Virus record (IMG/VR): IMGVR_UViG_2671180609_000024
Reading direction: 5' to 3' (one strand)
Length of the DNA: 22,105 nt
From: a virus
Lineage: Duplodnaviria > Heunggongvirae > Uroviricota > Caudoviricetes
The position numbers and the translations under genes were made by a program. The notes under the pieces were generated by a model, which was not told where the DNA came from, did not search any database, and saw nothing but the letters and a program-made list of their open reading frames with translations. Of this stretch, positions 3,918 to 21,100 are shown piece after piece; the stretch's first letter is position 1; every line of letters begins with the position of its first letter.

Positions 3918-4414
3918 TATTTAGCCCTCACCAGAAAGTTAAATGCAATATTTCGCGGTCTGACTGCAACAAAATTCACACCATCACCCACAGAGTTACT
4001 GGTGAAATTAAATCGTGAAAATCCTGGCTGATTTCCGGCGATGCCATCATGAAAGTTAATTGCGTGTCCCGCACCTTCGCCTATATTCCCGGCAAACTGA
4101 GAAAAGTTTGTAGCTGCCTGCCAGCTTAATAATTCGCGACCACCGTCTGCACCTCGCCCGTCATCCCAGATACGAATGAAATCACCGCGGGCTTCAGGTA
4201 ATACCAGCGAAGGAAACACTTTCGCCAGCACAGGATAATCAGTGGCAGAGAATTTCGCGCCGTTGAACTTCAAAAACACCATACAGGACCAGCTGTCGAT
4301 TACAGTATTTGGCATTGCAGCGGACGGCCAGAAGAACGGAACGCCAATAGCTGGAGCACCTTCTCTCAAACCAACGTTTATGAAAATGCAGAAATAACGA
4401 GCAAATGGCATCAT
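3917..4414 (-). pseudogene. Tail fibre C-terminal variable-segment fragment (Stf'-like); no constant N-terminal tail-fibre part in the window
   Basis: Gly/Asn/Phe-rich ORF immediately upstream of, and coupled to, tfa' (3917 overlap); its 5' end contains the recombinase crossover-like site. By position it is the alternative variable exon of an invertible tail-fibre gene. Confidence 0.6.
4361..4386. promoter_or_regulatory. Candidate Hin/Gin/Pin-type crossover site (hix/gix/pix-like 26-mer)
   Basis: TTCTCTCAAACCAACGTTTATGAAAA matches hixL (TTCTTGAAAACCAAGGTTTTTGATAA) at about 19 of 26 positions; about 55 bp upstream of the invertase start, where crossover sites lie in known systems. Confidence 0.5.
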
Positions 4415-4440
4415 TCCTGCTTTTGTCAGGGAGATCTACC

Positions 4441-4995
4441 ATGCTTATTGGCTATGTACGTGTGTCAACAAATGACCAGAACACAGATCTACAACGTAAT
4501 GCGCTGAACTGTGCAGGATGCGAGCTGATTTTTGAAGACAAGATAAGCGGTACAAAGTCCGAAAGGCCGGGACTGAAAAAACTGCTCAGGACATTATCGG
4601 CAGGTGACACTCTGGTTGTCTGGAAACTGGATCGGCTGGGGCGCAGTATGCGGCATCTGGTCATTCTGGTTGAGGAGTTGCGCGAACGTGGCGTTAATTT
4701 TCGCAGCCTGACGGATGCTATTGATACCAGTACCCCAATGGGGCGCTTTTTCTTTCATGTGATGGGGGCCCTGGCTGAAATGGAACGAGAACTGATTGTT
4801 GAACGAACAAAAGCTGGACTGGAAGCTGCTCGCGCACAGGGACGAATTGGTGGACGTCGTCCCAAACTTACACCAGAACAATGGGCGCAGGCCGGACGAT
4901 TAATTGCAGCAGGAATTCCTCGCCAGAAGGTAGCGATCATCTATGATGTTGGTGTATCGACACTGTATAAGAAGTTTCCGGCCGGAGATAAATGA
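4441..4995 (+). CDS. pin: Serine-type DNA invertase, Pin/Hin/Gin/Cin family
   Basis: MLIGYVRVSTNDQNTDLQRNAL... resolvase/invertase catalytic domain with the active-site Ser in YVRVST, plus a C-terminal HTH. SD GGGAG 7 nt upstream of the ATG at 4441; the listed ORF begins 12 codons upstream. Confidence 0.9.
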   Translation: MLIGYVRVSTNDQNTDLQRNALNCAGCELIFEDKISGTKSERPGLKKLLRTLSAGDTLVVWKLDRLGRSMRHLVILVEELRERGVNFRSLTDAIDTSTPMGRFFFHVMGALAEMERELIVERTKAGLEAARAQGRIGGRRPKLTPEQWAQAGRLIAAGIPRQKVAIIYDVGVSTLYKKFPAGDK

Positions 4996-6067: not shown

Positions 6068-6649
6068 CTTTATCAATGACTTATCTCCCGACTTCCCGTC
6101 TTGCTTTTCCTAAACAGAACAATCGTAGAATATTCTTGAAGGGTTAGATCGTCACTGTTTTCTGTTCGATACTGTGACATTCAGCACTTGATTCGCTATG
6201 GATCTGACAGGAAGGTTTTGAGCGAAAATCTGCAGTTATTCAGTCGTTTTCTTATCGGTCACCATTATTCTTTTAGACATTGATCCTACAAAGCTGCCGC
6301 AAAGTTGGTGGTGGGAACTGAAGTTGCGTAGAGAAGGGGTCAATACCCGGAGGCAAACATGGGCTGGCAAAAGTGTAGCGGTATTAGGCGCAGCTATTTA
6401 GCCTAGTTATGTTTTATGAAAACTTGATATCATATAAGTGTCTTACTTATTGGCTGTAAATAAGTTTTTCCTAAGGAATTGTTTCTTGAGTATCATTTGT
6501 AACTGTAACGGAATTTATAATCCTTTGCTTTATTGTTACGGTATTTTTTATCACACCCTATTTTTAGTGGTTTTTTATACTGAAGTTTGGCAAAGTGAAC
6601 TTTATATACATATACTTCATCCTGGTTTCAGTTAAATTGGGGGGATGAT

Positions 6650-7393
6650 ATGGCAACTACATGTTCAGTTATATTGATTTTGGAGTCCTTTGATGTTTAT
6701 TTCGGAAAAGAGAGTGTGTTTCTGGAGAGAGGTTCATCTGTACTTGTCGACTCTAGCTCTAGAGATTTTTTCCTGACATATCCTGAAAGAGTGATAGTGG
6801 CGGATTTTGGCGCTGAGTTTATTAGTCGCTATTTGAAAGCTAATAACTTAAGGGATATTTCTGATTGTAGGGAATATCCATCTTATTTAAAAATAAACTT
6901 TGCTGACTTCAGTTTAATTAAAGGATTAATTAGTTGGGCTAATCACTGTGCTGAATACATAGAAATTTTTGATGAGTCTATTGCTTTTACATGTCTCTCT
7001 GCATTTTCTTCTGAAAAACAATTTGGAGTATTTCTGTTTGGATGTTTGAAAAGCACAGGGGCTAAAGTTAAAACGATTATTCATACGGATTTATCTGCAC
7101 CATGGCGTCTTAAGGATATATCATCAAGATTATATCTCAGCGAAAGTTTACTAAAGAGGAAATTGAAAGAAGAGGGGGTATCATTCAGTAAGATCATACT
7201 TGATGAGAGGATGCAAATGGCTGAATATTTACTCAGCACTCGTTGTTATCCTATTAGTAAAGTAGCTAAGGTCTGTGGTTATGCCAGTGTCTCATACTTT
7301 ACTTATGTATTTAGACGTTATTTTGGTGTTTCTCCAAGTCAATACTCTCAGAGGAGTTCAGAAAGTAAAATTCTTACTCACCAGGGAATCTGA
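6650..7393 (+). CDS. AraC/XylS-family transcriptional regulator (AppY/GadX/Rns-like)
   Basis: C-terminal dual-HTH AraC domain (WRLKDISSRLYLSESLLKRKLKEEGVSFSKIILDERMQMAEYLL ... VCGYASVSYFTYVFRRYFGVSPSQY) aligns by eye to AppY. Very AT-rich gene with a long AT-rich leader; SD GGGGGATGA before the ATG. Confidence 0.85.
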   Translation: MATTCSVILILESFDVYFGKESVFLERGSSVLVDSSSRDFFLTYPERVIVADFGAEFISRYLKANNLRDISDCREYPSYLKINFADFSLIKGLISWANHCAEYIEIFDESIAFTCLSAFSSEKQFGVFLFGCLKSTGAKVKTIIHTDLSAPWRLKDISSRLYLSESLLKRKLKEEGVSFSKIILDERMQMAEYLLSTRCYPISKVAKVCGYASVSYFTYVFRRYFGVSPSQYSQRSSESKILTHQGI

Positions 7394-7395
7394 TC

Positions 7396-7872
7396 ATTGT
7401 TCTTGCCCCCTTATTTCCAGACAGGGGGGGTATCTTAAGTTAACGTTACCCGCTGACGTCGATATTCTCGCGGAGAGCGATAACCCAACGCACTGTGCGG
7501 ATGGTTTTCATTGTAATGTTCGATCGCCACTGCAAGATTATGCAATGCCGTTCTTACATTCGGTTTCGGCATGAACGCGATGTAGTCTTCCTTCATCGTT
7601 TTCACGAACCTTTCTGCAATTCCATTACTCTGAGGACTGCTGATTGCCGTTGTGCAGGGCTCCAGATTCAACTCTCTGGCGAACTGCCGTGTTTCATGCG
7701 CTCTATACGCTGAACCGTTATCTGTCAGCCACTGGATGGACTGTTCCGGTACTTTATCGCCAAAGCGTTTTTCTATCGCTCCTAACATGACATCCTGCAC
7801 TGTCGCTTTATCGTAACCTCCCGTGCTTGCGGCCCAGTCTATGGCTTCACGATCGCAACAGTCCAGGGCGAT
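7396..7872 (-). mobile_element. IS2-like (IS3-family) element remnant: 3' part of the orfB transposase plus a terminal inverted repeat; 5' truncated
   Basis: Translation ...[38 protein letters not shown]...[18 protein letters not shown] matches the IS2 InsD C-terminal region as I recall it. Terminal sequence around 7396-7420 (revcomp CCCCCCCTGTCTGGAAATAAGGGGGCAAG) resembles an IS2 end. In-frame stop at 7873-7875. Confidence 0.8.
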
Positions 7873-8147
7873 TCATCTGGGCCAATCCTTGCTCATAACA
7901 GGCATTCACTTCAGTCATGGCAGAAAGGTATGCATGCTGGAGAAGTCGTGAAAGAAAAGAAGACTGCTGCGCCGTTTGTCGTCACGTTTATCTTCATTGG
8001 CTATGCAAGTCGTAATACAAGGTGGGACAAAACTGAGACACATAAGGCCTCGCAATGGCTTGCAAGGCTTTACATGTTTTGATGTGGTGGGACGTGTGAG
8101 CGCAGTGTTGATGGGGTAATGCTTTGAATTAGAAGCGGATTCTTATA

Positions 8148-8193
8148 ATTCGTAATGCGAAGGTCGTAGGTTCGACTCCTATTATCGGCACCA
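8148..8193 (+). repeat. Direct repeat of the tRNA-Thr 3' end (46 bp, exact): att junction between element 1 and the P4-like element
   Basis: ATTCGTAATGCGAAGGTCGTAGGTTCGACTCCTATTATCGGCACCA is identical to positions 1399-1444 of the full tRNA gene. Confidence 0.9.
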
Positions 8194-8355
8194 TCTCAAC
8201 TTCCTCAAACGTCCGTATTAGTCCATAAAATCTCTGATTTATAACATTTTTTATTCTTTTAAGTCCATAGTAGTCCGTAACCATCCAGTAGAATCCGGTA
8301 CTGAATGTGTATAGGATTGTGTATATGTTCCTGTTCGGTCTGGATTCCTATACAC

Positions 8356-9537
8356 ATGCCTTTAAACGATATGCAGATTCGCCGCGCTAAGCCTGAAGCT
8401 AAAGCCTATACATTTGGAGATGGGCTAGGGTTGTCATTACTTATAGAACCTAATGGAAGCAAGAGTTGGCGGTTCCGCTATCGCTATGCCGGCAAACCCA
8501 AAATGATCTCGCTTGGTGTTTACCCAACGATCACCCTTGCCGATGCTCGTTCCCGTCGTGATGAAGCTCGAAAACTTGTGGCAGAAGGAAAGAACCCTAG
8601 TGAGGTTCGAAAAGAGCAAAAGCTAGCTATGCAAACAGAGTCAGAGAACGCCTTCGAAAAGATAGCCAGAGAGTGGCATCAACTTAAATCTGCTAAATGG
8701 TCGGCGGGATATGCATCAGACATCATGGAAGCGTTTAAGAACGACATTTTTCCTTATGTCGGAACAAGGCCTGTGGGAGAGATTAAACCGCTAGAGCTGC
8801 TGAACGTTCTGCGTAAAATTGAGAAACGTGGTGCGTTGGAGAAAATGCGCAAAGTGCGGCAGCGTTGCTCCGAAGTGTTTCGCTACGCAATTGCAACGGG
8901 TAGGGCGGAGTACAATCCTGCGGCTGATCTCTCCAGCGCTCTCGAAGTACACCAATCCAATCATTTCCCATTCCTAAAAGCTGATGAGATACCTGATTTT
9001 CTACGTGCCTTAGAGGGTTACTCCGGGAGTAAGCTTGTCCAGATAGCCACGAAATTACTGATGATTACGGGTGTGAGAACCATCGAATTACGCGCGGCAT
9101 TATGGCAAGAATTTGATCTGGATAACGCTATTTGGGAAATTCCTGCTGAAAGGATGAAAATGCGTAGGCCACATCTTGTGCCCTTATCATCTCAAGCGGT
9201 AGATTTACTCAATGAACTCAAGATCATGACAGGGAACTATCGTTATGTTTTTCCAGGGCGGAACGATCCGAATAGGCCAATGAGCGAAGCGAGTATAAAT
9301 CAAGCCATTAAGCGTATTGGGTATGGAGGAAAAGTCACTGGACATGGTTTTCGTCATACCCTTTCTACAATCCTGCATGAGCAAGGTTTTGAGAGTGCTT
9401 GGATTGAAATCCAGTTGGCTCATGTAGATAAAAATTCTATTAGGGGGACTTATAACCATGCTCAATATTTTAGTGGAAGGAAGTCTATGATGGACTGGTA
9501 CAGTAATTTGATATTTGAAAGACTAAAAAGGAGTTAA
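8356..9537 (+). CDS. int: P4-type tyrosine integrase (N-terminal arm-binding domain + catalytic domain)
   Basis: N-terminus MPLNDMQIRRAKPEAKAYTFGDGLGLSLLIEPNGSKSWRFRYRY is the classic P4/CP4-type integrase start; C-terminal HGFRHT ... Y catalytic motifs. Immediately follows the tRNA-derived repeat and reads away from it. Confidence 0.92.
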   Translation: MPLNDMQIRRAKPEAKAYTFGDGLGLSLLIEPNGSKSWRFRYRYAGKPKMISLGVYPTITLADARSRRDEARKLVAEGKNPSEVRKEQKLAMQTESENAFEKIAREWHQLKSAKWSAGYASDIMEAFKNDIFPYVGTRPVGEIKPLELLNVLRKIEKRGALEKMRKVRQRCSEVFRYAIATGRAEYNPAADLSSALEVHQSNHFPFLKADEIPDFLRALEGYSGSKLVQIATKLLMITGVRTIELRAALWQEFDLDNAIWEIPAERMKMRRPHLVPLSSQAVDLLNELKIMTGNYRYVFPGRNDPNRPMSEASINQAIKRIGYGGKVTGHGFRHTLSTILHEQGFESAWIEIQLAHVDKNSIRGTYNHAQYFSGRKSMMDWYSNLIFERLKRS

Positions 9538-9540
9538 TTT

Positions 9541-9957
9541 GTGTCTCAACCACTTTCGGAAATATTGACATGGGATGATGAACAATGGGAGGTATTTGTC
9601 CATGATTGGCTTATTGTCTGTAAATCAGATGATTACCCGTGGAGCGAACGTTTGGGAGGAGCTGGAGATAAAGGTAGAGACGTTGTTGGATATAAATCGG
9701 ATCCTAACGTAGAAGGTTATTCTTGGGATAATTATCAATGCAAACTGTACAAAAAAAGTTTAGGGTTCTCTGATGTTGTAGTTGAGTTTGGAAAACTTAT
9801 CTATTTTACTCTGAATGGTGATTATCCCATCCCTCAGAAGTACTTTTTTGTGGCACCCTATGATTTATCTACTACATTTTCTAATTTATTGAAAAATAAA
9901 AACGAGCTTAAAAAAGCAGTCCTTGATTCATGGGATTCAGCAATTTCAAAAAAATAA
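9541..9957 (+). CDS. Cargo gene 1: small protein with a PD-(D/E)xK (Mrr-like) nuclease motif; possibly the N-terminal part of a longer protein (see findings)
   Basis: GTG start 7 nt after SD AAGGAG and 3 nt after the int stop. Motifs GGAGDKGRDVVGY and, about 20 aa later, YQCKLYKK (D ... QxK) look like a restriction-endonuclease-like core. Very AT-rich. Confidence 0.6.
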   Translation: MSQPLSEILTWDDEQWEVFVHDWLIVCKSDDYPWSERLGGAGDKGRDVVGYKSDPNVEGYSWDNYQCKLYKKSLGFSDVVVEFGKLIYFTLNGDYPIPQKYFFVAPYDLSTTFSNLLKNKNELKKAVLDSWDSAISKK

Positions 9958-10547
9958 CTAAAAAGATTGATATTCCATTAGATGATGAAATAAAAAAATA
10001 TATTGAGGATTTTGATTTTAGTATTTTTTACTCTCTACCCTTATCATTGATTTTAAATGATATTGCAAATACACACCTTTATTTTAAGTACTTTAACGAG
10101 CTGTATGTCGTGAGAATCCCTCCAAATGAAATTCCAACATACAATTCAAAAAAAGAGTCTGTATATGTTAATGCACTGCTTCAAGCCTATTCAGAGCATG
10201 GAAATAAAACTTATAGTTCTTTCTTAGAGCTTGATGATCCATACAGACGACACTTTAATAATAGTAGAAATGATTTTTATTTTGCATCTTCGCTTGAGGT
10301 TTTTGTCCGCGAAGTATTTAAAGATGATGTATTCAAAGCATTGAAATGTTACATTTCATCTTCAATTGAACCCGTCTTTTATGAAGACCATAATTATGCA
10401 TTTATTAGGTGTAATGCAGTCTTGAAGCAGGCTGTTCTGACACCAATTGCACATTCAGTACTATCAAAAATATGTGAAGCAAATGATAAAAAAGGAATAT
10501 GCCATCATTTGGTTAATGATGGTGAAGTAATTTGGACGGTGAGATAA
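9930..10547 (+). CDS. Cargo gene 2: hypothetical protein (205 aa as listed); may be the C-terminal part of gene 1 joined by a shift in an A7 run
   Basis: ORF overlaps gene 1 by 28 nt in another frame; both frames pass through the A7 homopolymer at 9948-9954. No domain recognised by eye. Confidence 0.5.
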   Translation: MGFSNFKKITKKIDIPLDDEIKKYIEDFDFSIFYSLPLSLILNDIANTHLYFKYFNELYVVRIPPNEIPTYNSKKESVYVNALLQAYSEHGNKTYSSFLELDDPYRRHFNNSRNDFYFASSLEVFVREVFKDDVFKALKCYISSSIEPVFYEDHNYAFIRCNAVLKQAVLTPIAHSVLSKICEANDKKGICHHLVNDGEVIWTVR

Positions 10548-11005
10548 TGGTTAGAATTTATAATTCAAGTTTAGAAGTGGCATGTCGAATGGCGAAAGTG
10601 CTCGTCGCTATTTATCCTTCTTCATTAAGCCTTGAACGGCTTATTTGTTTTGATTTTATTTTAGTAAATCTTAAGGATTTTTTACCTGAAGAGATTAGTC
10701 TTCATCCTCCAATACCCCGTAGAGATGCTCAGTTAGCCCTAAAACGAGAGATTGTTTTAGAATCATTGGCTTTGTTGCAAGGCTATGAACTAGCCTCAAA
10801 AATTTATACACATCGTGGTTTTGTATATAAAGCTTCTGAAAAAACATATGCATTTACAAATTCTCTACATAATGAATATGTTGCGCAGATGGAGCATAAT
10901 ATAAATTTGGTGGTTAAGTTATATAGTGATATTCCTGATGAGCAGTTGCAATCAATTATAAAAAATAAAATTGGCAAATATGATATGGAATTTAATTATG
11001 AATGA
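10547..11005 (+). CDS. Cargo gene 3: hypothetical protein (about 152 aa)
   Basis: ATG overlaps the gene-2 stop (TAATG at 10545-10549); its stop overlaps the next gene's start. Same AT-rich composition. Confidence 0.55.
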   Translation: MVRIYNSSLEVACRMAKVLVAIYPSSLSLERLICFDFILVNLKDFLPEEISLHPPIPRRDAQLALKREIVLESLALLQGYELASKIYTHRGFVYKASEKTYAFTNSLHNEYVAQMEHNINLVVKLYSDIPDEQLQSIIKNKIGKYDMEFNYE

Positions 11006-11630
11006 CAATTTTTTTACGTTCAGAAAAATAAAGGTAACCGGATTCAATAAATTAGATGCTATAATTGAATTTGGTTCTAAATTGACTATTTTATATGGTG
11101 GTTCTGACTCTGGAAAAACATACATATATTATTTGATTCGATATTTATTAGGGAGTGAAAAACTAAAAAATAAAGATATCGATCATGCTCAAGGTTATGA
11201 TTTAGCCTATCTGGAATTTAATTTTCAAGGTAGGGTAATGACAATTGAGAGGTCTCTTCAGGATAGCGCCCATTACAGATTATATGATTCGAGCATTGAA
11301 AATGTTAGTGAAGCTAATCTGTTGATGGTTTTTTCCAAAAGTGCTTCGTCTAAAAAGAGTTTTTCATCATACTTTTATGGTAGGTTGAATTTCAAAGAGG
11401 CTAAAGTAAGAACAAACTTAAGTAATACTCTTCATAAATTTAATCTTAATAATGTTTTTGAATTTTTTTGTATTGATGAATTAAGAGTGTTAACTGAGAA
11501 GTCGTTAATTCTTTCTGATATTCCTAGCGAGGAGACAAAAAGAAAGTCTGAATTTAAATTCCTTTTAACTCAGAGAGATGATACTAACTCCTTAGCAGAA
11601 AAACCAAATAAAAAAGCAAGATATTTTTAA
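10998..11630 (+). CDS. Cargo gene 4: N-terminal head of an SMC/Rad50/RecN-like ABC ATPase (Walker A)
   Basis: FRKIKVTGFNKLDAIIEFGSKLTILYGGSDSGKTYIYYLIRYLLG is the canonical SMC-like N-terminal strand-loop-Walker A arrangement (GxxxxGKT). The ORF ends at a TAA inside a T5/A7 tract and the next ORF continues in the same frame. Confidence 0.65.
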   Translation: MNDNFFTFRKIKVTGFNKLDAIIEFGSKLTILYGGSDSGKTYIYYLIRYLLGSEKLKNKDIDHAQGYDLAYLEFNFQGRVMTIERSLQDSAHYRLYDSSIENVSEANLLMVFSKSASSKKSFSSYFYGRLNFKEAKVRTNLSNTLHKFNLNNVFEFFCIDELRVLTEKSLILSDIPSEETKRKSEFKFLLTQRDDTNSLAEKPNKKARYF

Positions 11631-11660
11631 AAAAATCAAATTGCAAATATTTATGAGGAA

Positions 11661-12251
11661 TTGAAAGCGCAATTAATTTATCCTGAATATGATCAAGTCA
11701 TTGTTTCAAGAGAACTTGAGAAAGTAGAGCAAGATATTGAATCATCGAAAGATATATTGAAAGGTATTGTTGATGCACTTGATGATAAGAAGCAATTATT
11801 AAAAGAGTTAAGTGATGAATTATATTCAATCAGTGACAGGGAAAAATACTTATCATTACTCATTGAAAGATTTAGTCTTCTTAAAGACCAATACTTTATA
11901 GATCTACAAAGAATAGATGTTGTATCACAGGCGAATTTCTATTTAAATAATTTTGCAGATATTTATTGTGAGTTCTGTAATACACCGCAAAAAAAAGAAA
12001 ATGAAATATCATATGATGATTGTTTTTTGTCGTGTAATGCAGAAAAATTGAAAATCAAAAGCCAGCTGAAAGGATTAATTGAATCAATCGGATCTAATGT
12101 TCGCGAACATGAATTAATTATGTTAAGAAAAAATGATGTTAATGAAATTTATCAATCAGAAAAAAGTGATTTTAAGACGTTAGAAGATAAAAATATAAAA
12201 CAATACATTCATCTCTTGAATCACTTTATGAATATAAAGACAATCTTTTAA
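11661..12251 (+). CDS. Cargo gene 5: coiled-coil segment of the SMC/Rad50-like ATPase with a Cys4 cluster (CxxC-x14-CxxxC); probably not independently translated
   Basis: Heptad-rich sequence (EKVEQDIESSKDILKGIVDALDDKKQLLKELSDELYSI...), cysteines in YCEFCNTPQ...DDCFLSCN. Same frame as gene 4, separated by a single TAA; the listed start is a TTG with no convincing SD. Confidence 0.5.
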   Translation: MKAQLIYPEYDQVIVSRELEKVEQDIESSKDILKGIVDALDDKKQLLKELSDELYSISDREKYLSLLIERFSLLKDQYFIDLQRIDVVSQANFYLNNFADIYCEFCNTPQKKENEISYDDCFLSCNAEKLKIKSQLKGLIESIGSNVREHELIMLRKNDVNEIYQSEKSDFKTLEDKNIKQYIHLLNHFMNIKTIF

Positions 12252-12817
12252 TGGATCACACAAAACATAGCATTCTATCTTCATTACAAGATAAAGAAGA
12301 TGATGTTGACGAACTTAAATACTCCGCCGAGGACTTTGACTCCTTAACAGTAGCTGATTTGTATGATATAGAAATAGCGATGCAAGACTTTTTGAATGAT
12401 ATAAATTTTGAAAATTCTAAAGATAACAAAGTGCGATTTGACGAAGATACATATGACTTTAATATCAATGGGAAACGCCGAGGAATGTTTGGTAAAGGTA
12501 CCCGTGCAGTAATGCATGCTATATTTACCATTTGCTTTGCGGAATTTTTATCAAGAAAAGGGAATCCATTCATTGGATTTGTTGTGCTTGATAGTCCATT
12601 AGTGACGCACTTTGATAAAGATAGAGGGGGTTCTCTATCGGATGTTAATAGCGTCAGTCTCAGTGATTCATTTTATCACGCATTAATCAAAAGGGACTAT
12701 AATTTCCAGATTGTAATTCTTGAGAATAAAGGTCCGACGTTCCAAATAAAAATTAATGATGCAAATAAAATCCATAACTTAAATAAGAATGGAAGCTCTG
12801 GTTTTTATCCTGTTTAA
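12251..12817 (+). CDS. Cargo gene 6: C-terminal head of the SMC/Rad50-like ABC ATPase (signature-like region, Walker B/D-loop, H-loop)
   Basis: FGKGTRAVMHAIFTICFAEFL followed by PFIGFVVLDSPLVTHFD (hydrophobic strand + D, Walker B-like) and a downstream His (FYHAL). ATG overlaps the gene-5 stop (TAATG). Confidence 0.6.
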   Translation: MDHTKHSILSSLQDKEDDVDELKYSAEDFDSLTVADLYDIEIAMQDFLNDINFENSKDNKVRFDEDTYDFNINGKRRGMFGKGTRAVMHAIFTICFAEFLSRKGNPFIGFVVLDSPLVTHFDKDRGGSLSDVNSVSLSDSFYHALIKRDYNFQIVILENKGPTFQIKINDANKIHNLNKNGSSGFYPV

Positions 12818-14056: not shown

Positions 14057-14805
14057 ACTGCTTTCTCCTTCTCAGCACGTTCCTGACGAACCTTCATTTT
14101 ATGCATAGCTGCTGGAGAGAGTTTATTACTGAAATCCAGACGGGCCGCATAATCCGGGGCAACTCCCGCCAGTTTAAACACGGGGTCCTGTTCGGGCATC
14201 GCATCGTTAGTCAGAGCCGGTCTGGTGATATGTTTATGAATAAAATCTTTCAGCAGTGTGTCCGGGTCATTAACTGAATGCACCACACCGACAACTGCGC
14301 TGGCTTCCCTGCCCATTGTTGATTTGAGCAGGCTTAGTGTCTGGATTAGTGCTTTTCCATGCGACTGCATAAAATCTTCCCAGATTTGTTTTGCGCGAAT
14401 ACCCACAAGGGTGTCGTGCGCGTGGATATACTTTCCGGCTAATTCCGCAGCCTCCTGCGGCAAAAGTGCATTTTCGCTTTCCTGAGCCGCCAGCAGCTCA
14501 TCAAAATCCTCAAGCGTTTCTCGTCCCAGCGCAATTTCCGTGCGCAGTTTTTTCATTTCCTTTGAGACTACGCCCTGACTTTCACGAAATAGCGTGCGCC
14601 ACTCCTCATTCAGGGCGTTCGTCGTGGCTTCCATTTCAGCGCGGCGCTGGCGGATTGTCGCAATATTATCCGCTGCCGCTTTTTGCTGACGACGTGCTTC
14701 AAGCCATGCAGATTTGGTGGCATTCACTTTCTCAAGCGCCTGTTGCGTCGAAACAGGGATAGAAATTTCAACGATCGGGTTATTGTTCTGTTCTGGGATT
14801 GTCAT
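14053..14805 (-). CDS. sid: Probable Sid-like external scaffold (capsid size determination) protein
   Basis: 250-aa alpha-helical, Ala/Glu/Gln-rich protein, first gene of the minus-strand operon and overlapping psu by 4 nt; size and position match P4 Sid (244 aa). Called by context, not by a recognised motif. Confidence 0.5.
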   Translation of the reverse strand: MTIPEQNNNPIVEISIPVSTQQALEKVNATKSAWLEARRQQKAAADNIATIRQRRAEMEATTNALNEEWRTLFRESQGVVSKEMKKLRTEIALGRETLEDFDELLAAQESENALLPQEAAELAGKYIHAHDTLVGIRAKQIWEDFMQSHGKALIQTLSLLKSTMGREASAVVGVVHSVNDPDTLLKDFIHKHITRPALTNDAMPEQDPVFKLAGVAPDYAARLDFSNKLSPAAMHKMKVRQERAEKEKAV

Positions 14806-14971
14806 GTCAGCACCTAGTGGTTTGTCGTGGTGTCAATTGTGCTGTGATGCATACAAAGCTGCCATTGAACGCCATTGTGCGAGCGACAAGACAAAGACTG
14901 AACCGCCCCGGACCTCTTTTGGCTAGCCAGAAAAGGCCTCGTTTAACTAAGGCTGTTTCAGACTTACCTTA

Positions 14972-15187
14972 ACTATTCACTACTATTCACTTAGGTAAAA
15001 AAAATAGGTAATACAGAAGGTTATAAGGTGAAGGGTTGGCATGGCAGTATTCATCGACTGTTCATAACTGTTCACATGGGAATAAAATTATTTATGGTAT
15101 TTTTTCATAATGGGTGGTTTTTTTATTCCTCGTAGCTATTTGTTTTTTGCTCCTCACCACTATTCACCCTTATTCAGGAGTATTCAA
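14972..15187. repeat. Cluster of about 8 direct iteron-like repeats, T(A/G)TTCA(C/T) (P4 type-I-iteron-like TGTTCACC variants), in the divergent intergenic region
   Basis: ACTATTCACT ACTATTCACT (tandem, 14972-14991), AGTATTCAT (15047), TGTTCAT (15059), TGTTCAC (15069), TATTCACC (15161), TATTCAG (15171), TATTCAA (15181), all in the same orientation. Confidence 0.6.
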
Positions 15188-15738
15188 CAGGCACATAAAT
15201 AGACTGCATGTTTTTGCCGGGGAATAACATTTTCGCCTCTGGCCATGGTGTTGCATTTCATACTGATTTTTATAAAACTAGATCTGTCCGGTTCTTTATG
15301 GATTCATTCGGATATATTTTACGATTTAAGGTGATGTTATTTAATATCAAGGTTTTTATGCAGGCCCAATGTTTATAAGTTGGATGCGATTCAAAAATAT
15401 GCCCGGAAATTGGGGCCTGCAATGCAAGGCCTCGTGTAGAAGTTGTACTGCCTTGCTGTATTGGCGGTGGGGTTAGCACTATCAGGTGCAATGACCCATA
15501 GGATAGTAAACCCTGGGTGAATGGTAGTTCCTATTAATGCTCCTGTATTTATAGTCCGCAGGCATGGTATTTATTATGTCATTTTATATGGTTTAATCGG
15601 GCTTTAAATTCCATAAAATCAATATGTGACGCTAAATAAAAAATGCGTGCGCAGGTGGTTTATATACACATAATAAGGAACTACCTGAACCCGGATAAAT
15701 TCATCCGGACTGTTGTGGAAATTAAAGAGGGTAGATAA

Positions 15739-15999
15739 ATGCGTAATATTTCTGTGTCTGCGCCAGCTCCTGCTGCGCCATTATTTCCTGTATCGAACCA
15801 TCATGAGCGATTTTTACGCCTGCCTGAGGTGATGCACTTATGCGGGTTGTCCCGTTCGACCGTTTACGACCTGATCAGCCGCGATGCGTTTCCGAAGCAG
15901 ATCCCGCTTGGCGGTAAAAATGTCGCCTGGGCACAGTCTGAGGTCAGCGCATGGATGGCGGACCGCATCAGCGCCCGTGGGCGGGGATGTGATGCATGA
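15739..15999 (+). CDS. AlpA/Vis-family small DNA-binding regulator (excisionase-like HTH)
   Basis: [48 protein letters not shown] matches the AlpA/Vis HTH pattern. SD AGAGGG 7 nt before the ATG. Confidence 0.8.
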
Positions 16000-16549
16000 T
16001 GATACCTGCATACATTAAATACCTTTATTCTGGCTTGCTTACTGTCGTCATTTCCAGGTATAGTTTTTCCGCTGTCGCAAAATCGGCAGCCGGAATTGGC
16101 GTTCCGTATAACTTATTGGCGACAATTGACGCCCCTTGCGTCTTTTTTTACGTCGTAGCTCAGGCACAACCATTTTCAGGGCTGTGGTGTTTATGCTTAC
16201 ACCATGGTTCTATCGAGATAATGGTAGTCCGGGCGGGGCAGCCTTCGGGCTGGCCGGTTTCCAATAAGGCCGGTTACGCCAACCCCGTTCGGGCTGCCAC
16301 CAGTGAAATTGGCGTTTCCGGTGGTAGCAATAACCGCTACTTATTGGAGGCTGCCATCATGGCTACAATCCTCACCCCGTCACACCCGCAATATGTCTTT
16401 GTGTTTGCCGCAATCCGCCGTGCTGACACTCACCCCCGCATCTGTATGCTTCGCACTGTCTCCTGCGATGAGCGTTCCGCGCGCCGTTTGCTAGTCCGAG
16501 ATTATGTACTCTCCCTTTCTGCACGGCTGCCTGCCGGGGAGGTGACGCT

Positions 16550-16771
16550 ATGAACCAGTTTGAGATTTCCTACGACGATGTTGTAAGGCTGAAACATTTA
16601 CGCAATGTGGGTGAGTATGTAACTGGCATGGCAGCCCTGCAGGACTGTTATGAAAAGCCAGCAGGTGCCCAATGCGAACAACTGGTTTCCCTCATTTATC
16701 TGATGACAGAGCAACTGGATGGAGTGGTGCAACGCTGCCATGACGACCTGATGAATGCGGAGGTGGCCTGA
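16550..16771 (+). CDS. Hypothetical small protein of the P4-like early operon (73 aa)
   Basis: SD GGGAGGTGA 4 nt before the ATG; ATGA-type overlap with the next ORF; same operon as alpha. Function unknown (positional analogue of P4 epsilon/orf151). Confidence 0.55.
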
Positions 16772-17094
16772 TGATATGCTGTGAATCTCTTCTGGCACTT
16801 CGTGCCGCTCTGTATCGCCGTGCCGTTGCCTGTGCCTGGCTGGCTCTAAGCAATCATCAGGAACGTTATTCCGGCCTGACGCTCGCTGAACTTGAAGATG
16901 CCATAGCCCGCGAGCTGGAAGGGTTCTATCTGCGCCAGCATGGGCAGCAAAGAGGGCTGGAAATTGCCTGCGCGTTGCTTTCGGATCTGATGGAGTCGGG
17001 GCCGCTTAAAGCCTGTCCGGTTCTCTCACTGCTCGGAATGACGGTCATGGATGAACTTTGTTCCCGTCACCTCAACAAACCAGCGCTGCACTAA
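16771..17094 (+). CDS. Hypothetical protein of the P4-like early operon (107 aa)
   Basis: SD GGAGGTGG upstream; start overlaps the previous stop; ends 13 nt before the alpha start. Confidence 0.55.
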
Positions 17095-17107
17095 GGAGGG
17101 CCGCACA

Positions 17108-19441
17108 ATGTCAGGAATGAAAGTTAGCCAGGCTGAGAAAGCAGCTCGGGGTCACTGGTCAAGAATTTTACCTGCGCTGGGCGTAAATGTACTGAAAAAT
17201 CGGCACCAGCCCTGCCCGGTCTGTGCCGGGAAAGACCGCTTTCGATTTGATGACCAGGAAGGGCGGGGAACGTGGTTCTGTAACCAGTGCGGGGCAGGTG
17301 ATGGCCTGGCGCTTGTAAGTAAAGTACTGGATGTAGGCATTAGTGAAGCGGCAGACAGAATAAACGGCATTATCGGAAACCTGCTGCCAGTATCTCAGGG
17401 AATGCTTGAATCTGGTTCTCCTGAAAAAGAGGACGGGAGAAAAGCTGCAGCAGTGCTGGCTGCCCGTTTGTTTGATAAGTCCCGCCAGACCACTGGCAAT
17501 GCCTATCTGACGAGTAAAGGGTTTCCTGCACTGCCTTGCCGGGAATTAACCGCTATGCATAAAGTCGGTGGTGTGGCATTTCGCGCGGGAGATCTTGTCG
17601 TTCCATTGTATGCAGATGGAGAGCTGGTAAATCTGCAGTTAATCAACGCTAATGGGGGCAAATGCTTCCTTAAAGGCGGTCAGGTTAAGAATGCCTTTTA
17701 CCTGGTTGAAGGTACTGCCAAAGCAGCCAAACGGCTCTGGATAGCGGAAGGATATGCCACCGCACTTACTATCAACTATCTGACTGGCGATGCTGTCATG
17801 GTGGCCTTTTCGTCCGTCAATTTCCTTTCCCTGGCGAGCATTGCCTGCAGTGAGTACCCAACGCACCAGATAATTATTGCTGCTGACCGCGATCTCAACG
17901 GTGCGGGGCAAACAAGGGGCGCAGCTGTTACCGGGGCCTGCAATTGCACAATGGCGCTCCCGCCTGTGTTTGGTGACTGGAACGATGCATTCACGCAAAA
18001 CGGCGAAGAAGCCACCCGGCATGCAATTCATGAAGTAATAAAACCAGCTGTTGCCAGCCCCTTCGACACAATGAGCGAAGCTGAATTTACCGCGCTGAGC
18101 GTCAGCGAAAAAGCGCAGAGGGTAGTGGATCACTATAAAAATTCACTGGCAGTAGACCCGAACGGGCAGCTCCTTTCACGCTATGAGGCGGGGGCCTGGA
18201 AAGTTATCTATTACGCCGATTTTGCCCGTGATGTCGCTGCGCTGTTTCAGCGCCTCGACGCACCTTTTTCATCCGCGAAAATTGCGTCTCTCGTGGAAAC
18301 CCTCAAACTGATCGTTCCGCAACAGCAGAATCCGGCGCGGCAACTTATCGGATTTCGCAACGGTGTGCTCGATACCCGGACAGGATTGTTCAGCCCGCAC
18401 GATAAGAAGCACTGGTTACGTACGCTGTGCGAGGTGGATTACACGCAGCCCGTTGACGGTGAGTCACTGGAAACCCATGCCCCGGCATTCTGGCGCTGGC
18501 TGGATCGTGCCGCAGGTTTTAATCCTGAAAAACGGGACATTATTCTGGCTGCATTGTTTATGGTGCTGGCTAACCGTTATGACTGGCAGCTGTTTCTGGA
18601 GGTCACTGGCCCTGGCGGAAGTGGAAAGAGTATTCTTGCTGAAATAGCAACCATGCTGGCGGGTGAAGATAACGCGACCTCGGCAACCATTGAAATGCTT
18701 GAGTCGCCAAGAGAACGAGCTGCGTTAATAGGTTTTTCACTGATTCGACTTCCCGACCAGGAAAAGTGGAGCGGTGACGGGGCCGGACTAAAAGCCATCA
18801 CTGGCGGCGATGCGGTATCCGTTGATCCCAAATATCAGAACGCCTATTCAACCCACATCCCGGCGGTCATCCTGGCTGTGAACAATAATCCGATGCGCTT
18901 CACTGATCGTAGTGGTGGAGTTTCACGCCGAAGGGTGATCCTGCATTTCCCCGACCAGATAGCCCCGGAGGAACGCGATACCCAGCTCAAAGAGAAAATT
19001 GCCAGTGAGCTAGCGGTGATTGTTCGCCAGCTTATGCAGCGTTTCAGCGACCCAATGAGTGCCAGGACATTGCTTCAGTCACAGCAGAACTCCGATGAAG
19101 CGCTCACCATCAAACGTGATGCTGATTCAGCTTTTGATTTTTGCGGCTACCTTGAGGTCCTACCTGACACCACGGGCATGTTTATGGGGAACGCTAATAT
19201 TGTTCCACGTCAGCCTCGAACTTACCTCTACCATGCCTATCTGGTCTACATGGAGGCTAACGGCTATAAAAATACGCTCAGTCTGACCATGTTTGGCAAG
19301 GGGCTACCGTTAATGCTCAAGGAATATGGGCTGCAGTATGAGAAACGACGGACCAATCAAGGAATGCAGACTAATCTGGCCCTAAGAGAGGAAAGCAATG
19401 CTGACTGGTTGCCAAAATGCGATGAGTTTGCAGCGAAATAA
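17108..19441 (+). CDS. P4 alpha-like bifunctional primase-helicase (777 aa)
   Basis: SD AAGGAGGG before the ATG at 17108. N-terminal zinc-binding primase motif CPVCAGKDRFRFDD...GTWFCNQCGAGDG; central P-loop EVTGPGGSGKSIL (D5-type helicase Walker A). Length equals that of P4 alpha (777 aa). The listed ORF starts 19 codons upstream. Confidence 0.9.
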   Translation: MSGMKVSQAEKAARGHWSRILPALGVNVLKNRHQPCPVCAGKDRFRFDDQEGRGTWFCNQCGAGDGLALVSKVLDVGISEAADRINGIIGNLLPVSQGMLESGSPEKEDGRKAAAVLAARLFDKSRQTTGNAYLTSKGFPALPCRELTAMHKVGGVAFRAGDLVVPLYADGELVNLQLINANGGKCFLKGGQVKNAFYLVEGTAKAAKRLWIAEGYATALTINYLTGDAVMVAFSSVNFLSLASIACSEYPTHQIIIAADRDLNGAGQTRGAAVTGACNCTMALPPVFGDWNDAFTQNGEEATRHAIHEVIKPAVASPFDTMSEAEFTALSVSEKAQRVVDHYKNSLAVDPNGQLLSRYEAGAWKVIYYADFARDVAALFQRLDAPFSSAKIASLVETLKLIVPQQQNPARQLIGFRNGVLDTRTGLFSPHDKKHWLRTLCEVDYTQPVDGESLETHAPAFWRWLDRAAGFNPEKRDIILAALFMVLANRYDWQLFLEVTGPGGSGKSILAEIATMLAGEDNATSATIEMLESPRERAALIGFSLIRLPDQEKWSGDGAGLKAITGGDAVSVDPKYQNAYSTHIPAVILAVNNNPMRFTDRSGGVSRRRVILHFPDQIAPEERDTQLKEKIASELAVIVRQLMQRFSDPMSARTLLQSQQNSDEALTIKRDADSAFDFCGYLEVLPDTTGMFMGNANIVPRQPRTYLYHAYLVYMEANGYKNTLSLTMFGKGLPLMLKEYGLQYEKRRTNQGMQTNLALREESNADWLPKCDEFAAK

Positions 19442-19448
19442 CTGACCT

Positions 19449-19469
19449 AAGACCGGCTGTGCCGGTCTT
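19449..19469. terminator. Perfect palindrome / hairpin (AAGACCGG ... CCGGTCTT) between the convergent alpha and cargo genes; no U-tract
   Basis: AAGACCGGCTGTGCCGGTCTT forms an 8-9 bp stem, 8 nt after the alpha stop. No flanking T-run on either strand, so terminator function is uncertain; it could be a protein-binding palindrome. Confidence 0.35.
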
Positions 19470-19573
19470 AAATCCGCTACAGGAAATTATCTCAAAATAT
19501 ATATCGATAAAATTTAAAAGTTATATGCTAAGGCGTCAGCGGAAAATGCATCTAATTCATTGTTAGATGATGT

Positions 19574-20530
19574 TTATTTTTGAATTGATTTAAACATCCC
19601 ATCGAGTTGTAATTTATTTATGTCGGTTTTCTTTATGGCTTTAATTAAGTTTTCAATAACTTCCAAAGAAAAAATTACATCTTTCTTTTCAATTCTAACC
19701 CCCCCGTGGTGGCTGCAAGCATTAAGGATGTCCTTTGTAATTTCAACATCATTTTTCATTAATGGTTCATAGTCCAGAGCCTCAATAACAGAAACTAAAC
19801 TACCTAGCATTTGCTCTTGGTATTGAACGTTGTTTAAATGCATTATACGAATATTAACAAGCATGAGAATATATTCTAAATATCTCCTGGCAGTATTTCC
19901 TTTCTCTTGTAAAGAATCACGATCATATTCCTCAATACTCATGACTTCATTATGTAAAGAGGCTATTTTGTGCTCTGCTAATGAAATATTTATCGCATCC
20001 ATGAGGTTTCGTGAGAAGCCTGTAGATGTAACATGACCATTTGCGGGCCTTGTTAAAATACATGTAGTATAGCAATTTATATTTGGGGTCTGGATTGTCT
20101 CATTTACTCTTTTAACCGTTCTATAAACGTCTACCATATAAGAACCTGAGTTTTCAAATGAACATGAAGAGCATTTTGTATTATATATTCTATTTAGAGA
20201 TAACTGATTGTGATAGTATCCCTTTAAGAAAGCATATATAGTGTCATTAAACTCGACAAACACAACGGACTCAATATATATATGGAATTTATCATTGGGG
20301 TGCCACTCTAATTCAAGTCTTCTTGTAGAGTCATCAAAGGAAAAGTTTGAAATAAAATCCCAGTTACCTAAATCTATAAAATCAACGATATTTCTACCTG
20401 CACCATGGATATTTTTATTTATTAAAGTTGTGATTGAGTTTTTTATAATGTCCCAATCATGAATTTCATGATCGAATTTATTATTGATGGTTTCTTTTAT
20501 TTGATTGGAAAAGTTTGAATAACTAGTCAC
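19574..20530 (-). CDS. Orphan AT-rich cargo gene, hypothetical protein (318 aa), between alpha and the distal att remnant
   Basis: Long ORF with a GTG start preceded by a GAGG SD; strongly AT-rich, Asn/Ile/Lys-rich composition unlike the flanking P4-like genes. No domain recognised by eye. Confidence 0.6.
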   Translation of the reverse strand: MTSYSNFSNQIKETINNKFDHEIHDWDIIKNSITTLINKNIHGAGRNIVDFIDLGNWDFISNFSFDDSTRRLELEWHPNDKFHIYIESVVFVEFNDTIYAFLKGYYHNQLSLNRIYNTKCSSCSFENSGSYMVDVYRTVKRVNETIQTPNINCYTTCILTRPANGHVTSTGFSRNLMDAINISLAEHKIASLHNEVMSIEEYDRDSLQEKGNTARRYLEYILMLVNIRIMHLNNVQYQEQMLGSLVSVIEALDYEPLMKNDVEITKDILNACSHHGGVRIEKKDVIFSLEVIENLIKAIKKTDINKLQLDGMFKSIQK

Positions 20531-20829
20531 TTGTTAGCCTCAAAATTAATAATGAGTATTAAAATTTAATTGATATTGTCTATAAAATGTAGCGATGCAA
20601 TTTTATTGCAACGAAATGATTTTTACAACATACCATTATCGCTAAACAAAATCGCACCCATCAAATCAACTTACGTTACAATCACTACAAAGCGATTGCA
20701 TTTAAATTCAAAACAGTTTTCTGTTGGGCGCATTTTTTGTTGTACTGGACTAAAGAGAAAAAATGGGGTAAGGAACAAATACCTTCCGTGCTCAAAAATT
20801 AGGTTTTTATGCACTTATTAATCAGTCAA

Positions 20830-20921
20830 GGTGAACAGTAAAGTGTTCACTTCTTATCAATCGTTAATTTCATATCTTTTTGAATATTAATGAAAAAAAA
20901 CACAATGAGTAGTATGAACAG
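20830..20921. repeat. Inverted pair of P4 type-I-iteron-like octamers (GGTGAACA gtaaag TGTTCACT) plus a further inverted copy (ATGAACAG)
   Basis: GGTGAACAGTAAAGTGTTCACT at 20830-20851 (GGTGAACA is the reverse complement of TGTTCACC); ATGAACAG at 20914-20921. Confidence 0.5.
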
Positions 20922-21060
20922 TTTTCCCCCAAAAAAAGTTTTTTCTGCCTTGAGAATGCGCGGAAAGCGAACGCCTTCACCAATGTGTATAGGGGTGTGT
21001 GTAGTTTAAATCTTCTATTTTAATTTATGTATTAAAATCATTGTGTTGGTGGCGATTATT

Positions 21061-21100
21061 GGTTCCTATTATCGCACCATTTAAATCAAGTAGTTACCCC
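21061..21100 (+). repeat. Degenerate third copy of the tRNA-Thr 3' end plus flank (distal att remnant of the array)
   Basis: GGTTCCTATTATCGCACCATTTAAATCAAGTAGTTAC against the tRNA 3' end plus its flank GGTTCGACTCCTATTATCGGCACCATTTAAATCAATAAGTTAC at 1420-1462 (a 5-nt and a 1-nt deletion, two substitutions). Confidence 0.6.

Follow-up and report, generated by a model that had tools for sequence, protein, structure and literature searches.

Near the right-hand end of a P4-like element of E. coli O157:H7, non-coding DNA carries an inverted pair of octamers under which RefSeq places no feature in genomes of the O157 lineage. What is this pair for? The first-pass annotation had offered two answers, namely a second binding locus for the replication protein alpha, of the kind that crr forms with ori1 in P4, and an operator for the neighboring cargo gene. 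They are considered here in the light of the anatomy of the element, of the P4 record and of the corresponding loci in related elements.

The right-hand end of Sp2 and its inverted repeat

The stretch of DNA under analysis (22,105 nucleotides, hereafter the window) represents the island at thrW in E. coli O157:H7, in which the prophage Sp1 and the P4-like element Sp2 stand in tandem; the names are those used in strain Sakai, where Sp2 was described as a P4-like prophage (PMC2669165). Many complete chromosomes of E. coli O157:H7 match its segment 19400-21300 at 100% identity. The window starts in proA, followed by the gene for tRNA-Thr(CGT) (1369-1444), and the left end of Sp2 is a partial, 46-bp copy of the 3′ half of this tRNA (8148-8193), just upstream of the integrase gene int (8305-9537). 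Beyond int come an AT-rich cargo region (9541-12817), the minus-strand genes delta, psu and sid, 930 bp of intergenic DNA, and a plus-strand operon that ends in alpha. The core set of int, psu, delta, sid, an alpA-like gene and alpha is present in the P4 order, as judged from the RefSeq annotation of the identical O157 locus, open reading frames and Pfam. The cargo region 9541-12817, on the int-to-delta/psu side, is the main P4 hotspot and has a GC content of 0.28-0.35; in the RefSeq record of a closely related O157 genome, it holds 'ABC-three component system' genes and three hypothetical proteins.

On the other side, the stop codon of alpha (19441) is followed by a hairpin (19444-19474), cargo DNA (19475 to about 20820), the putative crr (20821-20952), an arm site (20983) and the att core (21064), which is the order of P4 with one insertion. 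The cargo DNA contains an AT-rich minus-strand ORF (19574-20530), past which 675 bp of non-coding DNA hold the inverted repeat. The attR site (21064-21089, plus strand) is a copy of the tRNA-Thr 3′ end plus flank, identical to 1428-1454 at 26 of 27 positions; it marks the right end of both the island and Sp2, and a core LysR-family gene directly follows. The right-hand anatomy of Sp2, from alpha through cargo, crr and arm site to attR, is thereby fixed. In this tandem integration at thrW, the right-end copy comprises the last 17 nt of the tRNA plus flank, and the core of Sp2 amounts to only about 17 bp. The sequence that follows the tRNA (TTTAAATCAATAAGTTAC) is similar to the chromosomal sequence beyond attR (TTTAAATCAAGTAGTTAC), so that the attP of Sp1 seems to extend into the flank.

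The probable arm-type site of the integrase, ATGTGTATAG (20983-20992, plus strand), has further exact copies at 8305-8314 (plus) and 8348-8357 (minus). These three are the exact copies in the window, where seven sites are found at up to one mismatch against 1.1 expected. In the circular form of Sp2 they flank the att core on both sides, and the annotated arm repeats of P4 occupy the same two places.

The inverted repeat itself can be read directly from the sequence as the palindromic pair GGTGAACAgtaaagTGTTCACT at 20830-20851, and its description as an inverted repeat of the octamer was accurate. The left arm, iteron 1 (GGTGAACA, 20830-20837, minus strand), reads as TGTTCACC, the type-1 repeat of P4, in exact reverse complement and has the same position as the P4 repeats 4398-4405 and 4578-4585. 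A 6-nt spacer, gtaaag (20838-20843), which is identical in 26 units of other genomes, separates it from the right arm, iteron 2 (TGTTCACT, 20844-20851, plus strand), which matches at seven of eight positions. The interior (20852-20912, plus strand) corresponds to iterons 3, 4 and 5 of the family consensus, with mutations at the invariant positions 20855, 20857, 20866, 20868 and 20909. Iteron 6 (TATGAACA, reverse complement TGTTCATA; 20913-20920, minus strand), weakened to six matches of eight, lies 61 nt past the pair; it is the further inverted copy that had been noticed about 65 bp away. A 10-mer at this iteron, TATGAACAGT, recurs as its exact reverse complement in the ori array (15057-15066). 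The unit is closed by an A7-G-T6 tract (20931-20944), kept in nearly all of 27 related units of one class (class A, see below) and in both crr repeats of P4. The AT-rich, non-coding character ascribed to the surroundings agrees with a GC content of 0.32; an 83-aa ORF at 20570-20821, which has no Pfam match, was treated as spurious.

The bare octamer is not enriched, as 19 matches to TGTTCACC at up to one mismatch are found in the window against 14.9 expected, the copy at 20830-20837 being the sole exact one. The evidence was therefore taken from arrangement and homology instead. The arrangement GTGAACA-N6-TGTTCAC, searched with up to two mismatches, is found once in the window, exactly, against 0.06 expected. 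AT-rich DNA holds many short palindromes, and together with the unremarkable octamer count this is what might be said for a fortuitous repeat. Yet the rarity of the arrangement, the profile E-values of 1e-23 and 5e-6 given below and a position conserved across genera refute that explanation, the probability of which is negligible.

Another palindrome of the region, TGCAATTTTATTGCA, does exist, although at 20596-20610, two nucleotides away from the approximate 20594-20608 first given. It overlaps the −10 hexamer of a minus-strand promoter-like site (TTGTAA-17-TAAAAT, 20628-20600) upstream of the cargo ORF. It lies outside the crr and could be an operator; promoter-like sites in this region are not above chance (seven found, 9.4 expected).

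Homology to the P4 cis replication region

In the P4 record (X51522), crr is annotated as the 'cis required region for replication' at 4291-4590. Two direct repeats of 120 bp make up this region, and each of them contains five type-1 repeats, not all in the same orientation; on one side of the region is the alpha terminator (4604-4628), on the other are the attP arm repeats (4151-4174) and core (4078-4097). Both the GenBank annotation (X51522) and a preprint (bioRxiv 10.64898/2026.03.30.715334) treat crr as required or essential for the replication of P4. In the direction of alpha, the parts of each P4 unit follow one another as GGTGAACA-N6-TGTTCACC, CTTCACC..TATTCACC, an AT-rich stretch of about 35 bases, GGTGAACAgtGTGAACA and a tract of A8T6; TATTCACC is itself annotated as a type-1 repeat. 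The window is colinear with this unit from about 20826 to 20946, with the pair at the same 6-nt spacing, an AT-rich interior of equal length, ..agtATGAACAgtttt and A7GT6. Between the window unit and either P4 unit, 75-76 of 120 bases are identical (z = 6.8-8.7 against shuffles).

Profile searches gave the same result. An nhmmer profile of 27 class-A units from other genomes, built with the window unit left out, has a single match in the window, at 20821-20952 (E = 1.1e-23, model positions 3-134). Similarly, a profile made from the two annotated crr repeats of P4 alone matches 20829-20942 (E = 5e-6, model positions 5-119). Base composition alone is an unlikely source of these matches, given the E-values of single hits and a position that is conserved. 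The site noticed at 20830-20921 is thus real, but it is part of a larger module of about 20821-20952 that includes the conserved A7GT6 tract.

The location is also that of the P4 crr, as the unit lies past the 3′ end of alpha and before the attP core, with ori1 on the opposite side of alpha. The type-1 iterons, which occur in both orientations, belong to one family common to the unit and the ori1 array at 14971-15076. The unit has three iterons against five annotated per unit in P4 (six with the adjoining CTTCACC) and six in the class-A consensus. The P4-style arrangement of two direct 120-bp repeats separated by 60 bp is absent from Sp2; no second unit was detected in the window with the family profile, nor beside the alpha terminator.

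From these sequence comparisons, the homology of the window unit to crr is a near certainty, and we consider it likely, with a probability of about three in four, that 20821-20952 is the crr of Sp2, present as one copy of the unit of about 120 bp that P4 carries twice. The proposal of a second locus comparable to the P4 crr, paired with the direct array as ori1, is thus supported by homology, position and related loci. A function by homology can be given to a stretch that RefSeq leaves without annotation and that about 310 complete E. coli genomes carry.

Related elements, alternative readings and the state of the unit

A sensitive blastn search of 5,426 complete E. coli genomes with 20780-21063 identified the segment at 99% identity or more in about 310 of them. 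These are largely O157:H7 and O55:H7, for which reason they provide no test of selection. Another 55 genomes have matches of 60-80% identity, which among the matches listed cover 20828-20946. In all three loci inspected among these 55 genomes, the unit lies downstream of the alpha-like gene of another P4-like element. Among the numbered loci referred to below, it stands directly past the alpha terminator in L004 and L005, and past an unrelated 305-aa ORF in L003.

A broader view was gained from 80 loci that encode alpha relatives, taken from one-genome-per-species contigs. In 43 of them, whose alpha is in every case at least 72% identical, GTGAACA-N6-TGTTCAC is present downstream of this gene. 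It lies 37-70 nt past alpha in 31 of the 43 loci, about 15 with one pair and 16 with a P4-type tandem, so that the two-unit form of P4 is not general; in five it is displaced by 0.7-2.3 kb, and in seven there is one unit beside alpha and another 1.2-2.0 kb further on. The resulting range of alpha-to-crr distances, from 37 to 2336 nt, fits a site that works at variable distance. P4-type units have the spacers ATCCAC and GTCGAC and come as two units about 170-180 nt apart. Class-A units, to which that of the window belongs, are single, highly conserved and have the spacer GTAAAG; their consensus reads aaaaGTGAACAgtaaagTGTTCACTGTTCACc..TATTCACc, about 35 nt, GTGAACAgtGTGAACAgtttt, then A8GT7. For distant alpha relatives (56-68% identical), a search for 7-mers shared between the 450 nt past alpha and the ori region yielded almost nothing, and no argument from co-variation is made.

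These loci bear on the operator proposal, according to which the pair would be a regulatory palindrome for the minus-strand cargo gene 19574-20530. The pair is indeed an inverted repeat in non-coding DNA upstream of that gene, but 300 nt separate it from the start codon, and the hexamers that resemble a promoter are at 20555-20664. Moreover, the identical pair and spacer are found directly past alpha in elements that lack the cargo gene. Conversely, homologues of the cargo gene occur without the pair in an ICE-like Citrobacter locus (80% amino acid identity) and in Proteus chromosomes, and the DNA homology to the Citrobacter locus ends at the ORF. The operator proposal is thus not borne out, and we regard it as very improbable.

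Equally improbable is a role of the pair as a recombination arm of attP, bound by the integrase, an excisionase or a host bending protein. At 143-234 nt from the att core, the sites are within the range of arm sites. However, the unit is also carried by elements with a different att core, of the P4 type (P4, L003, L004), and with different arm repeats (GGGGGCAC), and in Sp2 the arm motif is a separate one, ATGTGTATAG, at 20983, 8305 and 8348.

The closest alpha relative is found in L043, from Scandinavium lactucae (alpha 94% identical; DNA 90.5% identical over 14258-19420). At the site of the window cargo it has a SIR2-like ORF (6428-7525), followed by a terminator, a crr unit, the ATGTGTATAG motif and an att core of the thrW type. 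Its crr, within 7667-7930, has lost the left arm of the pair and kept iterons 2, 3 and 5, and is eroded at other iterons than that of the window. L043 also has a bearing on ATCGCACCCATCAAATCAACTTACGTTAC (20651-20679), which weakly resembles attR plus flank (21071-21097). As a second, degenerate att copy it would make the crr a remnant of another element, but its score was reached by 16 of 300 shuffles, and this sister element has the same order of alpha, cargo, crr and att; the candidate was rejected. The resemblance is probably due to chance; if real, it would be an older element boundary.

How well the crr unit of the window has been preserved can be judged column by column. At columns at least 90% conserved among class-A units it agrees at 63 of 70 positions (90%), against 32 of 76 (42%) at variable columns (Fisher p = 5e-10), which argues for past purifying selection on the unit, since divergence is near saturation at free columns and held at constrained ones. 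Nevertheless, iterons contain six of the seven departures at conserved columns: iteron 3 has T for C at 20855 and 20857, iteron 4 has A for C at 20866 and T for C at 20868, iteron 5 has G for A at 20909, and iteron 6 has A for G at 20914. The unit, the most degenerate of 28 in class A, retains the palindromic pair, perfect over 20 bp, together with one weakened iteron and the A/T tract. With three of its six iterons mutated at invariant positions, the site is probably weaker than the consensus crr.

One may therefore ask whether the unit is a crr by descent that no longer suffices for replication, in a fixed and decaying Sp2, where chance and short time have kept it. Apart from the degeneracy and the three damaged iterons, this would be in line with the loss of the T-run of the alpha terminator at the cargo junction, and the roughly 310 near-identical carriers, being largely one lineage, are silent on selection. 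In addition, Sp2 of Sakai showed no circularization, replication or packaging, with or without mitomycin C (PMC2669165, Table 2), and the resident P2-like prophage was judged defective by the authors of that study (PMC2669165). On the other hand, the difference between conserved and variable columns, the perfect palindromic pair and the intact alpha ORF and binding domain all speak against such a relic. P4-type elements respond to a P2-type helper, whose signal they need for induction, so that the negative result in Sakai is not decisive. Furthermore, the variant pattern of the ori is common to Sp2 and to L043 of another genus, which points to a stable lineage state rather than to recent decay. 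A relic is hence a possibility of some weight, but the less probable one; the odds that the window unit is still a competent alpha-binding crr seem roughly even or somewhat better. For asking how little of a crr alpha requires, a partly eroded unit with a perfect pair would be well suited.

Partner origin, cargo and comparison with known systems

The direct array 5.8 kb away, proposed as the partner of the pair, is real. Located at 14971-15076 (plus strand), it corresponds to P4 ori1 base for base in an alignment, the GTAATACAG core and six positions of iterons included, and the same module is found in 31 relatives. It comprises five direct iterons (TATTCAC twice, TATTCAT, TGTTCAT and TGTTCAC), one degenerate inverted iteron (GGTGAAGG) and the conserved GTAATACAG core. 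Only one iteron is a strict TGTTCAC; the others depart from TGTTCACC, and the same variant pattern in L043, hence in two genera, may reflect a shifted or relaxed specificity of alpha. With the crr family profile, the ori region gives only E-values above 0.2.

Alpha itself (17108-19441, plus strand) is an intact ORF for a 777-aa primase-helicase with zinc-ribbon, Toprim, D5_N and Pox_D5 domains (Pfam) and has 72% DNA identity to P4 alpha. Its residues 671-770 match all 100 residues of the origin-binding domain of P4 alpha (PDB 1KA8; E = 9e-46), and in sequence this C-terminal domain is intact. An ORF of the DUF5375 family (16771-17094, plus strand; PF17345, E = 1.7e-49) stands at the position of P4 ORF106 in the same gene order. 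We take P4 ORF106 to be cnr, the copy-number regulator that acts on alpha.

In P4, the iterons of ori1 and crr are bound by the same initiator domain. According to older work on this phage, the C-terminal winged-helix domain of alpha is said to bind type-1 iterons at both sites, and both are reportedly needed in cis for replication from ori1. Alpha is also said to bridge ori1 and crr by looping, and Cnr reportedly raises DNA binding by alpha and so limits copy number. A scheme for Sp2 can be built on the features that sequence comparison has established (the homology, position and iterons of the unit, the partner ori and an alpha with an intact binding domain), with binding, looping and the requirement in cis taken by analogy from P4. 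In an excised, derepressed Sp2, the winged-helix domain of alpha would bind the TGTTCAC-type iterons of the unit, with the perfect pair GTGAACA-N6-TGTTCAC as its main target, probably as a dimer. Alpha would likewise bind the iteron array of ori1, 5.8 kb away, and alpha-alpha contacts would join both sites by DNA looping. The ori1-crr assembly would be needed in cis for the start of replication at ori1, and it is there that the Cnr-like protein (16771-17094) might exert a damping effect.

Between alpha and the unit, the AT-rich cargo module (19475-20820, minus strand, GC 0.31) contains the ORF for a 318-aa protein (19574-20530). No family was found for this protein in Pfam, PADLOC or NCBIfam, and tblastn against plasmids returned one partial match. 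Its own family is small, with 36 clusters (90% identity) from Enterobacterales and Aeromonas. In the Citrobacter locus, the 80%-identical homologue lies beside genes for a TraG-like coupling protein, an N6/N4 methyltransferase and ArdC. The hairpin at 19444-19474 (plus strand) is homologous to the alpha terminator; along 19444-19480 the hairpin is kept and the T-run is replaced by ttaaatcc at the left cargo junction. As it faces the 3′ end of the minus-strand cargo ORF, it may serve both genes, or it may terminate alpha poorly. Unrelated cargo is present at the same site in L003 and L043.

The order of features shows that the cargo gene lies inside the satellite Sp2. This matters for censuses of P4-like satellites, one of which ends the elements at alpha (PMC8628076). 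A defence hotspot between primase and att was recently reported (PMC13586616), and the cargo ORF, which lies in it, is on that account a candidate defence or anti-defence gene. The crr goes unmentioned in the census papers on P4-like satellites that were consulted, these two (PMC8628076, PMC13586616) among them. Cargo is found between the alpha terminator and a crr unit in the window, L003, L007, L011, L028, L034, L040 and L043, and between two crr units in L008, L016, L023, L035, L053, L057 and L060, where it consists of 1.1-1.9 kb of non-homologous, low-GC DNA. The intervening segments have a GC content of 0.31-0.47 and are not homologous to one another, which indicates that crr units bracket a site of variable cargo and thereby refines the reported hotspot. 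In L008, L016, L023, L035, L057 and L060, the alpha-proximal units have a distinct common right flank (..ccagaaaaaacttttt..caaaa..atcagaccg), the sequence of which suggests a conserved junction for cargo exchange. Tentatively, crr units might in addition serve as conserved anchor points of a hotspot for cargo exchange, in which the 60-bp-spaced repeats of P4 would be an empty landing pad and recombination between co-resident crr units would swap cargo; this extension is possible, but we would not give it even odds. If true, a crr-based model would mark the right end of satellites better than the alpha gene does.

One of the closest known systems is the P4 crr, with a unit length of about 120 bp, the same internal order, 63% identity and an ori1 with the same iteron type about 5 kb away. 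The differences are that Sp2 has one unit and P4 two, that the spacer is gtaaag rather than atccac or atcgaa, that three interior iterons have been lost in Sp2, that a 1.35-kb cargo module separates alpha from the unit, and that the unit goes with an att of the thrW type rather than with the P4 att core. The P4 ori1 (X51522 9310-9413) belongs to the same iteron family; it has mostly direct iterons around the GTAATACAG core, where replication starts, whereas the window unit has the architecture of a crr. The Sp2 crr is a fresh example of an element known since the 1980s, and it leaves the mechanism of P4 replication unchanged.

The class-A units of other P4-like elements of Enterobacterales (e.g., L004, L005, L009, L012, L014) share with the window the identical 20-bp core GTGAACAgtaaagTGTTCAC, the unit length, the single copy, the terminal gtGTGAACAgtttt and the A/T tract. 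In contrast to the three iterons and the displacement by 1.39 kb seen in the window, they have five or six iterons and usually lie 47-60 nt past alpha. Displaced units similar to that of the window occur in L003, L007, L034 and L040, and in L011 and L028 the displaced units are of the P4 type.

A more remote parallel is provided by iteron plasmids such as R6K, which like Sp2 have one initiator and two iteron clusters kilobases apart. In R6K, the pi protein links the gamma ori with the alpha and beta origins, by looping or handcuffing that serves activation or control. The analogy is one of mechanism, as the initiator and the sequences of these plasmids are unrelated to those of Sp2.
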